Virus record (IMG/VR): IMGVR_UViG_3300012207_000001
From: a virus
DNA: 60,899 nucleotides
Strand: one strand, 5' to 3'
Shown here: positions 55,972-56,347 of the stretch, piece after piece
Layout: each line of letters starts with the position of its first letter
Position numbering within the stretch: the stretch's first letter is position 1
Notes under the pieces: model-generated
What the model was told of the DNA's origin: nothing
Database searches by the model: none
The model's input: only the letters and a program-made list of their open reading frames with translations
Position numbers and translations under genes: made by a program

Positions 55972-56347
55972 TGTACACGCATCCGAGCAAGAAAAACAGG
56001 ACGGTGTACAATGTGTACAGAAAAGTCACGCAGTAAATACCCGTAAATCATATGGAATACCTATATGTTGTACACCGTGTACACGGAATGTACACGGATG
56101 TACACGCAAAACCCTACTTTTTGCCAATTCGGTGTACAAAATTTATTGCTCTGGCAGGAATGGAACATGTAATCTTGTACGTACAAATTTATTTCATTAT
56201 AGTTATTTCATTATAGTAGTTTTGTACACGGTCTTATGCAAAAAAAACATATTTATTTATTTATGTGTACTGTGTACATGTGTACAAAATAGTCAAAATA
56301 CCCCTTGCCTGAGCATAATTGTATCCTTGTACGTACAGGAAAAATAG
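55972..56347. repeat. Array of 12 TGTACA hexamers and two TGTACGTACA palindromes, with an AT-rich core and a 14-bp tandem repeat.
   Basis: TGTACA starts at 55972, 56005, 56014, 56069, 56078, 56089, 56099, 56133, 56223, 56273 and 56281, with TGTACT at 56266. TTGTACGTACA occurs at 56175-56185 and 56337-56347. ttatttcattatag is repeated twice at 56189-56216. Confidence 0.85.

Follow-up and report, generated by a model that had tools for sequence, protein, structure and literature searches.

The subject of this analysis is an array of short repeats built on the hexamer TGTACA, which is considered here as a candidate origin of replication. The array lies in a 60,899-nt stretch of viral DNA (IMG/VR record IMGVR_UViG_3300012207_000001; the whole stretch is referred to as the window). 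The window belongs to a temperate tailed phage of the Chloroflexota type, and its assembly is circular, with a 123-bp terminal direct repeat that leaves a unique length of about 60,776 bp. Related loci that were compared with the window are designated by L-numbers.

The repeat array and its borders

The array occupies a 533-bp intergenic gap (55883-56415; 34% G+C), not the 375 bp of noncoding DNA given in the original prediction. The exact hexamer occurs 11 times in this gap (55972, 56005, 56014, 56069, 56078, 56089, 56099, 56133, 56223, 56273 and 56281) and the variant TGTACT once (56266), in the numbers that had been reported for them; GTAC cores total 17. Based on the 33 sites in the remaining 60.2 kb, 0.29 copies of TGTACA would be expected in the gap (Poisson P = 2.5e-14), and the maximum reached in dinucleotide shuffles of the region (n = 2000) was 5. 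The 7-mers TGTACAC and GTGTACA are likewise concentrated here, as 12 of the 25 copies in the genome fall within the 533 bp.

The repeat unit, or iteron, is a directional 7-9-mer, TGTACAC(S)(S), which is present in both orientations. Eight TGTACA(C) sites of both orientations (55972 through 56133) make up a left cluster at 55972..56138. Four of them, which start at 56069, 56078, 56089 and 56099, follow one another at 9, 11 and 10 bp, or about one helical turn, as had been described previously, but the unit originally proposed for them, TGTACAC(G/C)G, has to be relaxed to TGTACAC(S)(S) since the fourth copy reads TGTACACGC. The left cluster also contains a perfect 12-mer palindrome, CCGTGTACACGG (56075-56086). 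An A/T-rich core at 56186..56265, a candidate unwinding element, includes two tandem copies of the 14-bp sequence TTATTTCATTATAG (56189-56216), an iteron, TGTACACGG (56223-56231), and the A/T run ATGCAAAAAAAACATATTTATTTATTTATG (56236-56265). Both the tandem repeat and the A/T run had been noted before and can be read directly in the sequence. The least stable 60-bp window in the whole genome lies at 56167-56226, where dG is -63.1 compared with a mean of -80.6 (standard deviation 4.7). The core is followed by a triplet of overlapping or adjacent iterons, GTGTACT, GTGTACA and GTGTACA (56266..56286), whose orientation is opposite to that of the iteron at 56223.

Three blocks that are not iterons complete what is referred to here as the module. 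The first, GAGCAAGAAA (55985..55994), does not vary between the window, L001, L006 and L044, and in every case it follows an iteron. The second (56151..56185) consists of CTGGCAGG..ATGTAAT and the palindrome P1, CTTGTACGTACA (56174-56185), and the third (56301..56337) of CCCCTTGCC..TTGTATC and the palindrome P2, which is again CTTGTACGTACA (56326-56337). The original prediction had recognized the two palindromes as TTGTACGTACA, although it placed the second at 56337-56347 rather than 56327-56337, an error of 10 bp, and counted both among the repeats. They belong instead to a scaffold that is kept in relatives whose iterons differ. The module contains no exact match to the DnaA-box consensus TTWTNCACA, and an Rfam scan of the window returned nothing in 55883-56415, its sole match being a tRNA gene at 55178-55251.

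Both genes that border the gap run leftward. On the right is a gene for a 73-aa HTH_17-like protein (56416..56637, - strand), a candidate regulator with a weak match to the helix-turn-helix (HTH) family HTH_17. Its intrinsic terminator (56357..56383, - strand), which has the same position in L001, L006 and L044, forms the right boundary of the module. The left boundary is a promoter-like site of the gene for a 136-aa protein (TTGACT-17-TAATAT with TG, 55917-55889, - strand), and a GTAC half-site at 55919-55925 abuts the -35 element of this promoter. The HTH gene is separated from the rightward replication operon by a 250-bp divergent promoter region, which contains a strong rightward promoter (TTGACG-17-TACAAT, 56748-56776) and two direct copies of TACATTGCA that are 36 bp apart (56720-56728 and 56756-56764). 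The second copy falls in the spacer of the strong promoter, and the pair is probably the operator of a switch that controls the replication operon. The array is thus not just upstream of that operon, as had been stated, given that the HTH gene, its terminator and the divergent promoter region intervene.

One scaffold with exchanged repeats at related loci

The window has no similarity to known phages in blastn and tblastn comparisons with 50,697 GenBank phages, and scans of IMG/VR with its helicase and its 136-aa protein returned no close relatives. Relatives of the helicase were found in soil metagenomes and in metagenome-assembled genomes (MAGs) of Chloroflexia, and metagenomes such as SRR6266700 and SRR10360606 contain near-identical contigs. 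A homologous module is present at 13 related loci, 12 of which are distinct (L004 has the sequence of L001). The scaffold that these loci share consists of GAGCAAGAAA, CTGGCA, two CTTGTAYRKACA palindromes that are 120-170 bp apart at most loci, an A/T-rich core and CCCTTGCC. The closest relative, L001, whose helicase is 62% identical to that of the window, has a syntenic gap of 575 bp, and the two gaps can be aligned through TCCGAGCAAGAAA, CTGGCA, ATGCAAAAAAAAC, CCCTTGCC and the two CTTGTAYRKACA palindromes.

What differs between the loci is the iteron. In place of every TGTACAC site, L001 has ATGGGCAT or AAACGGGCC. The iteron is AAACGTAC in L006, AAACATACAC in L044, TTGCACAC in L005, ATGGGCAT + ATGGACCAC (x3) in L043 and GAGTTGCCAC in L063, while L051 and L061 share GAGTTGTCAC and the partial module of L046 has a TGTACA-type repeat. 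L058, L059 and L060 carry 11-12 copies of CATCTACAC among the same CCTGGCAAGGG / CCCTTGCCTGG blocks, without the CTTGTAC palindromes, and the repeat of L052, TTTTCCACA, is the DnaA-box consensus. At each locus the motif is nearly restricted to its own module (for example, 8/8, 7/7 and 7/8 of the exact copies). A layout in which one iteron is followed by the A/T-rich core and then by about three inverted iterons recurs in the window, L001, L005, L006 and L044, the last four of which have triplets homologous to that at 56266..56286. In L005 and L043 the swap can be followed at the level of the individual cassette, aactaaCGTGCAAGtactc versus aactaaTGGGCATAtactc, between nearly identical flanks. 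As read from these alignments, change in the iterons is concerted and far quicker than in the flanking DNA, which would be the signature of binding sites that co-evolve with a sequence-specific reader.

Two other explanations of the array were considered. Iterons that flank the A/T core are mutually complementary in every relative, and the RNA folding z-scores of the region are -3.7 (+ strand) and -2.1 (- strand), as might be expected if the module were a structured noncoding RNA, or a hairpin element of single-stranded DNA, and the apparent swapping of repeats were compensatory covariation. This is highly improbable given that there is no Rfam match, that a terminator and an outward promoter bracket a region with no convincing internal promoter, and that many of the repeats are direct, phased and unpaired; any palindrome-rich sequence would fold to a similarly low energy. 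Alternatively, the array could be a cluster of methyltransferase targets which acts as a methylation-sensed timing element, like the GATC clusters in oriC or P1 pac. The hexamer TGTACA is indeed palindromic in all 11 copies, it is about 1.8-fold over-represented outside the array as well (33 sites versus about 19 expected), and the replication operon includes methyltransferase genes. The conserved unit, however, is the directional TGTACACSS, the repeats of relatives are non-palindromic (AAACATACAC, CATCTACAC and GAGTTGTCAC), and several loci with such repeats have no methyltransferase nearby, which makes a role as methylation targets very unlikely.

The module never lies more than 2 kb from an operon that encodes a RusA-like protein and a DUF3987 helicase, a linkage seen in 13/13 related loci, and it is directly upstream of this operon in L005, L043, L046, L051, L059 and L061. 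The most divergent arrangement is that of L052, whose helicase is only 25% identical to that of the window and whose module is immediately 3' of the helicase gene. This module is a large imperfect palindrome with a 140-bp core of almost pure A/T in its middle. The 11-kb locus has four exact matches to TTWTNCACA, and every one of them is in the module, in a symmetric arrangement about the A/T core.

A second gene that accompanies the module is terS, and its proximity, which was not picked up in the original prediction, raises the possibility that the array is a packaging recognition site of the pac or cosB type, which is the chief competitor of an origin as an explanation. TerS would bind the repeats and the large terminase subunit would cut near the palindromes; in a variant of this model the phased copies might wrap around the oligomeric ring of TerS, and a short terminal repeat could result if the two cuts were about 150 bp apart. 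In the window, a terminase small subunit-like protein of 165 aa with an N-terminal HTH and a conserved C-terminal half is encoded at 54584..55081 (- strand), 0.8 kb from the module. Homologues of this protein match phrog_1206 (E = 3e-9 and 2e-6), and the L001 counterpart, with which it has the C-terminal half in common, matches phrog_6299 (5e-21). No terS is found beside terL (35148-36779, - strand), the gene for the large terminase subunit, which is about 18 kb away from the terS-like gene by the replication region. The terS gene is adjacent to the module or at most 1.8 kb from it in the window, L001, L006, L044, L051 and L058-61, and it adjoins the module in L006, L044 and L061. The sequences of L005, L043 and L063 lack the left flank. 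Moreover, a palindrome that resembles a cut site next to variable repeats echoes the cosN and cosB of lambda and phage 21, and three contigs (L005, L043 and L046) begin within the module. Exact copies of CATCTACAC, for which about 0.1 copies per locus would be expected by chance in L058-60, also occur outside the module at these loci, both inside terS (L058:5908, L059:5592, L060:3750/3765) and in the first codons of the helicase gene (L058:7534, L059:7522, L060:5262).

Several observations nevertheless make a packaging site unlikely. The recognition helices of TerS are nearly the same in L059 (GKSTIHEHAIAGQW), L051 (SKSTIHEHAVDGHW) and L006 (GKSTIHERALAEQW), yet the iterons of these loci (CATCTACAC, GAGTTGTCAC and AAACGTAC, respectively) are unrelated, a comparison that rules out TerS as the reader of the repeats. 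The module of L052 adjoins the helicase gene and its repeats are DnaA boxes, and there is no terS among the open reading frames (ORFs) listed up to position 8000 of this 11-kb locus. A long, nearly pure A/T core with inverted iterons is typical of origins. Finally, the three contig starts are 7, 59 and 86 nt from the palindromes and do not define a common physical end; breaks in the assembly at a mosaic junction are the better explanation for them. Should the array have a packaging role after all, these data would describe a new specificity system similar to cosB.

Two further observations concern terS. In L001 the N-terminal DNA-binding domain of TerS has been replaced by a non-homologous one while the C-terminal half is retained. 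In the window, the 12-mer GCTGTACAAGGT occurs both inside terS (54860-54871) and at 57462-57473, which is 20 nt before the start of the helicase gene. It resembles palindrome P2 without the central GTAC, although this could be chance as many 12-mer pairs are expected in 61 kb.

Mosaicism is extreme across L001, L006, L044, L005 and L043. The RusA-like proteins of L001 and L006 are 85% identical and their helicases 58%, whereas for L006 and L044 the helicases are 84% and the RusA-like proteins 56% identical; recombination breakpoints therefore fall between one replication gene and the next, as well as at the module edges. In L001, genes for a ParB_N-like protein and a TET-associated glycosyltransferase (TAGT, E = 2e-42) lie between the module and terS (L001:1299-2856, - strand), and the pair suggests DNA hypermodification. 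The ParB_N-like gene borders the module, and an array of short repeats is centromere-like, so the module could in principle be a plasmid-type partition site of an extrachromosomal prophage. This is extremely unlikely for the window, which has an integrase and an excisionase and lacks ParA and ParB among the proteins scanned; the ParB_N-like protein of L001 occurs in a DNA-modification context and has no counterpart elsewhere.

The scaffold is not present at the distant DUF3987 loci L003, L009, L011 and L034-37. Two other loci have iteron clusters of their own within a different scaffold, namely TTGGTTA in L012 (70-100, 620-655 and 4905-4970) and GACACTTC in L027 (3473-3565 and 8347-8398). Such clusters are found both ahead of the helicase gene and immediately at its 3' end, and they fit the use of iterons by the DUF3987 family, though in another module. 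In L037, from a Chloroflexia MAG, nine tandem 71-bp units (TACCTGA at a 71-bp period; 3823-4396) are found upstream of a distant DUF3987 gene. In IMG/VR, the pattern GAGCAAGAA..CTTGTA..CTTGTAC had three matches (L040-42), all of them chance occurrences in coding DNA, and a scan for the pair of palindromes gave four chance matches in an A/T-rich coding tandem repeat at L053, L055 and L056. The latter scan also found the informative L052 and recovered the L050/L051 contigs again.

The helicase operon, candidate readers and a proposed origin

The first gene of the replication operon encodes a Holliday-junction resolvase of the RusA fold (56977..57489, + strand; the listed ORF starts at 56887). 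Pfam and PHROG profiles gave no match for this protein, but its AlphaFold2 (AF2) model (pLDDT 79.6) has E. coli RusA as its top seven Foldseek matches (E = 4.6e-6, TM 0.66-0.69). The second gene encodes a 499-aa DUF3987 protein (57493..58992, + strand), an MCM-like replicative helicase of superfamily 6 (SF6). Directly downstream of it are a gene for a 188-aa protein that is unique to the window (59000-59566) and two adjacent genes for N6/N4 DNA methyltransferases (544 and 292 aa; 59573-60899 and on into 1-1296). The methyltransferase genes cross the circular junction, which is why no ORF of at least 60 aa is listed in the last 1.3 kb; a fragment of a C5 methyltransferase is also encoded in the window. 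The same rightward operon continues across the junction to a DnaG-type primase with a zinc ribbon and a Toprim domain (2376..3956, + strand). The labels RusA, DUF3987 and primase in the original prediction were correct, but the primase gene is not adjacent to the other two and lies about 5 kb further along.

Profile comparison of the window helicase with sequences in the Protein Data Bank found nothing significant, and fold comparison alone was informative. The model has an MCM fold, with all of the top 50 Foldseek matches being MCM proteins, and a C-terminal winged helix at about residues 416-490 (nt 58738-58962) in the AF2 model. DUF3987 proteins have been described as SF6 replicative helicases with a C-terminal winged HTH (PMC4889955), and helicase activity has been demonstrated for one member (PMC11724360). 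The winged helix of the helicase is the leading candidate for the initiator and for the reader of the iterons. Groups of loci with the same iteron, namely L058, L059 and L060 (helicases 78-94% identical overall) and L051 and L061, have near-identical winged helices, and a winged helix with a 6-aa insertion occurs in four helicases (the window, L046, L006 and L044), all of which are paired with xTAC-type iterons. L006 and L044, whose helicases are 84% identical, have iterons that are one base apart. In L051, a gene next to the module encodes a 148-aa protein (HTH148; 4505-4951) in which an HTH_17 domain is joined to a paralogue of the winged helix of the helicase (1886-3355; 51% identity over 67 aa, E = 2e-20).

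The 73-aa HTH protein is a weaker candidate for the reader, because its position is taken by a non-homologous protein in L044 and is vacant beside the L061 module. The small HTH genes bear as well on the alternative offered in the original prediction, that the array is an operator. A phage-specific repressor or activator, which might be the neighboring small HTH protein, the product of a gene elsewhere or the 136-aa protein, would polymerize over the repeats. The array would then silence or activate the flanking leftward genes, or would itself be an immunity or incompatibility determinant and not a site of initiation. Small HTH genes are found beside the module in the window, L001, L006, L044 and L051, and proteins of the HTH_17/Xis/Cox/Apl type bind phased direct repeats. 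The GTAC half-site that abuts the promoter of the 136-aa gene, the extension of the L051 iterons to the promoter of the HTH148-terS transcript and the extra iterons at the 5' end of the helicase gene in L058-60 would all suit an operator, and the rapid change of repeats in place resembles diversifying selection on a determinant of specificity or immunity. The array, however, has a terminator on one side and a promoter on the other and does not extend into the divergent promoters, and the promoter region of the HTH gene itself carries a different repeat, the TACATTGCA pair. The small HTH protein is HTH_17-like in L006 and of the HTH_3 family in L044 despite the single-base difference between their iterons, and L061 has iterons identical to those of L051 but lacks HTH148. 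With at least 12 sites around an A/T-rich core, the array also far exceeds known switch operators. An operator function for the array is therefore improbable, and one that works through the 73-aa or the 136-aa protein is not supported.

The 136-aa protein fares no better as the cognate regulator or as the reader, since its gene has its own promoter and terminator (55466-55436) and no homologue at any related locus. The protein has no Pfam or PHROG match and no similarity to the winged helix of the helicase. The 136-aa gene and the tRNA gene look like a moron-type insertion between the module and terS (55436-55917, - strand). The tRNA gene (55178-55251, - strand) scores 44.4 bits in Rfam and is reported by ARAGORN as 'tRNA-???' with anticodon 'ta'. 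Its anticodon loop (..CCGATCCTTAGAGTTCGG..) looks irregular, and the gene may thus specify a suppressor tRNA or some other atypical phage tRNA. Two other proteins were rejected as readers. The RusA-like protein, considered also as an initiator, has a RusA fold and is identical in L061 and L063 despite their different iterons, and the 188-aa protein of the window has no homologue elsewhere, including in L046 with its TGTACA iteron.

Taken together, the array is probably the cis-acting replication origin of the approximately 60.8-kb phage, a conclusion held with moderate confidence and drawn from sequence comparison. The original proposal that iterons and an A/T-rich element form a phage origin is thus the best-supported reading after the comparison of 13 loci. 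It is favored because of the arrangement in L052, the low duplex stability of the core, the presence of an MCM-like helicase with a winged helix and the match to the origins of staphylococcal pathogenicity islands (SaPIs; see below). The core origin would lie between P1 (56174) and P2 (56326) and would comprise the iteron at 56223, the A/T-rich unwinding element and the three opposed iterons at 56266-56286, with the eight further iterons on the left (55972-56138), four of them phased at one helical turn, as an accessory cluster. If SaPI Rep and P4 alpha are taken as models, the iterons on both sides of the A/T core would be bound, and the core melted, by a sequence-specific initiator, most likely the C-terminal winged helix of the DUF3987 helicase that is encoded 1.1 kb away. 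The initiator would then load two hexamers of the phage MCM-like helicase head to head, after which the DnaG-type primase of the same operon would prime synthesis. The surplus iterons could raise the local concentration of the initiator or serve in copy control or incompatibility.

A number of findings weigh against an origin at this site or against the helicase as its reader. Cumulative GC skew, which had been suggested as a check, has its global minimum at about 36 kb, whereas the dip at 55-57 kb is no more than local. In a gene-wise regression of skew, gene orientation explains 33%, and the addition of a replichore term helps only for an origin at about 36-36.5 kb (R2 0.33 -> 0.37) and gives no improvement for one at 56 kb. 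The skew of the window, in which the structural genes form a long leftward block, mostly follows gene orientation and is uninformative or slightly negative for 56 kb. A second origin-like spot exists in the intergenic region between terL and the xis/int genes (36780-37005), where the only perfect DnaA boxes in the window, TTATCCACA, occur as an inverted pair at 36870 and 36892 with ATTTCCACA between them (36866-36902), beside the second least stable 60-bp window of the genome (36806) and at the global minimum of the cumulative skew. This spot could be a DnaA-dependent second origin, or it could be a feature of attP or of the int promoter. The module is syntenic with terS everywhere but in L052, which means that an origin and a packaging site cannot be told apart by linkage alone, and the extra iterons of L058-60 in terS and at the helicase start also fit a regulatory or packaging role. 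The array of the window is 1.1 kb from the helicase gene and not directly 3' of it as in SaPIs. With regard to the reader, L061 and L063 have identical RusA-like proteins and identical helicase residues 1-465, yet 4/4 iterons differ by a T to C change, and the helicases of L005 and L043 are 82% identical whereas their iterons differ at 3-5 of 8 positions.

An attachment site with arm-type sites, in which the phased repeats and core-like palindromes might take part, was also considered for the array and was rejected. The genes for the tyrosine integrase (37549-38694), which marks the phage as temperate, and for an excisionase-like protein beside it (37006-37218) are 17 kb away and have their own A/T-rich intergenic region.

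It is also possible, though rather unlikely, that the module acts as a socket in which cassettes of 7-9 bp are replaced in place at every position while the flanks hardly change, either with a reader other than the helicase, TerS or the small HTH protein or as a hub that joins replication with packaging and late expression. The idea of a dual hub stems from the synteny with terS, the iterons in terS and at the helicase start of L058-60, and the palindromes as possible cut sites. Such a socket would have given rise to at least ten mutually exclusive specificities, one of which uses host DnaA boxes.

To our knowledge, no origin has been defined for any phage with a DUF3987 (bacterial MCM-like, SF6) helicase or for any Chloroflexota phage. 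An iteron origin for a self-loading helicase is a kind of element that is already known. What is new is that the helicase is of the bacterial MCM-like type, that a palindrome-flanked scaffold is common to helicases down to 25% identity, and that about ten iteron specificities have been exchanged in place, one of them with DnaA boxes. The family amounts to a natural experiment in which one putative origin scaffold is written in about ten iteron 'alphabets', and pairs of phages with near-identical replication proteins but different iterons make origin recognition and melting by MCM-like helicases, as well as the evolution of specificity, amenable to testing. In metagenomic phage contigs that are otherwise unannotated, the module would mark the replication origin and probably the incompatibility group.

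Comparison with known systems

The cos sites of lambda and phage 21 have a conserved cosN and a specificity-swapped cosB that is read by the terminase small subunit. The modules described here are similar in that a conserved palindrome is combined with variable repeats directly upstream of terS in several relatives. They differ from cos in that the repeats do not track the TerS helix and are far more numerous, in the long A/T-rich core, and in L052, where terS was not seen nearby. Bacterial oriC is resembled most closely by the L052 module, with its consensus DnaA boxes TTTTCCACA around an A/T core, and not by the module of the window, which is without a DnaA box.

In the lambda origin, which is bound by O, and in iteron plasmids such as P1, F, R6K, RK2 and pPS10, iterons are located beside an A/T-rich unwinding region, as the iterons of the window adjoin theirs. 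Iterons of these replicons co-evolve with the specificity of the initiator, and surplus iterons lead to copy control and incompatibility. The lambda iterons are 18-19 bp and lie inside the initiator gene, and those of plasmids are 17-22 bp and have dedicated Rep proteins as readers; in contrast, the window yielded no gene for an O-like or Rep-like initiator.

In phage P4, clustered octameric iterons in ori and crr serve as binding sites for the C-terminal winged helix of the alpha protein, and a small paralogue, Cnr, has a regulatory role. The alpha protein is an SF3 primase-helicase fusion that acts with two separated cis regions. A counterpart of the alpha/Cnr pair is seen in L051, where a small protein carries a paralogue of the winged helix of the helicase; the window itself has no such paralogue. 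Unlike P4, the window has an MCM-like helicase, a separate DnaG-type primase and a single module.

The closest parallel is with the SaPIs. An origin of this type contains 6-12 iterons of five or six nucleotides, which are divided equally between the two flanks of an A/T-rich center and are opposed in orientation (PMC9371898). The C-terminal winged-helix domain of the self-loading SaPI Rep helicase reads these iterons (PMC9371898). No sequence similarity of the helicase of the window to SaPI Rep was found. The module of the window also differs in its position, 1.1 kb upstream of the helicase gene and past the HTH gene, with the SaPI position 3' of rep being seen only in L052, and in its two conserved flanking palindromes and eight-site accessory cluster. 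As in the SaPIs (SaPIbov1, for example, whose Rep2 is an MCM-like SF6 helicase), short iterons (5-7 bp, 6-12 or more copies) are arranged about an A/T center in opposed orientation, the partner helicase ends in a winged helix, and the putative origin specificity varies between related elements.

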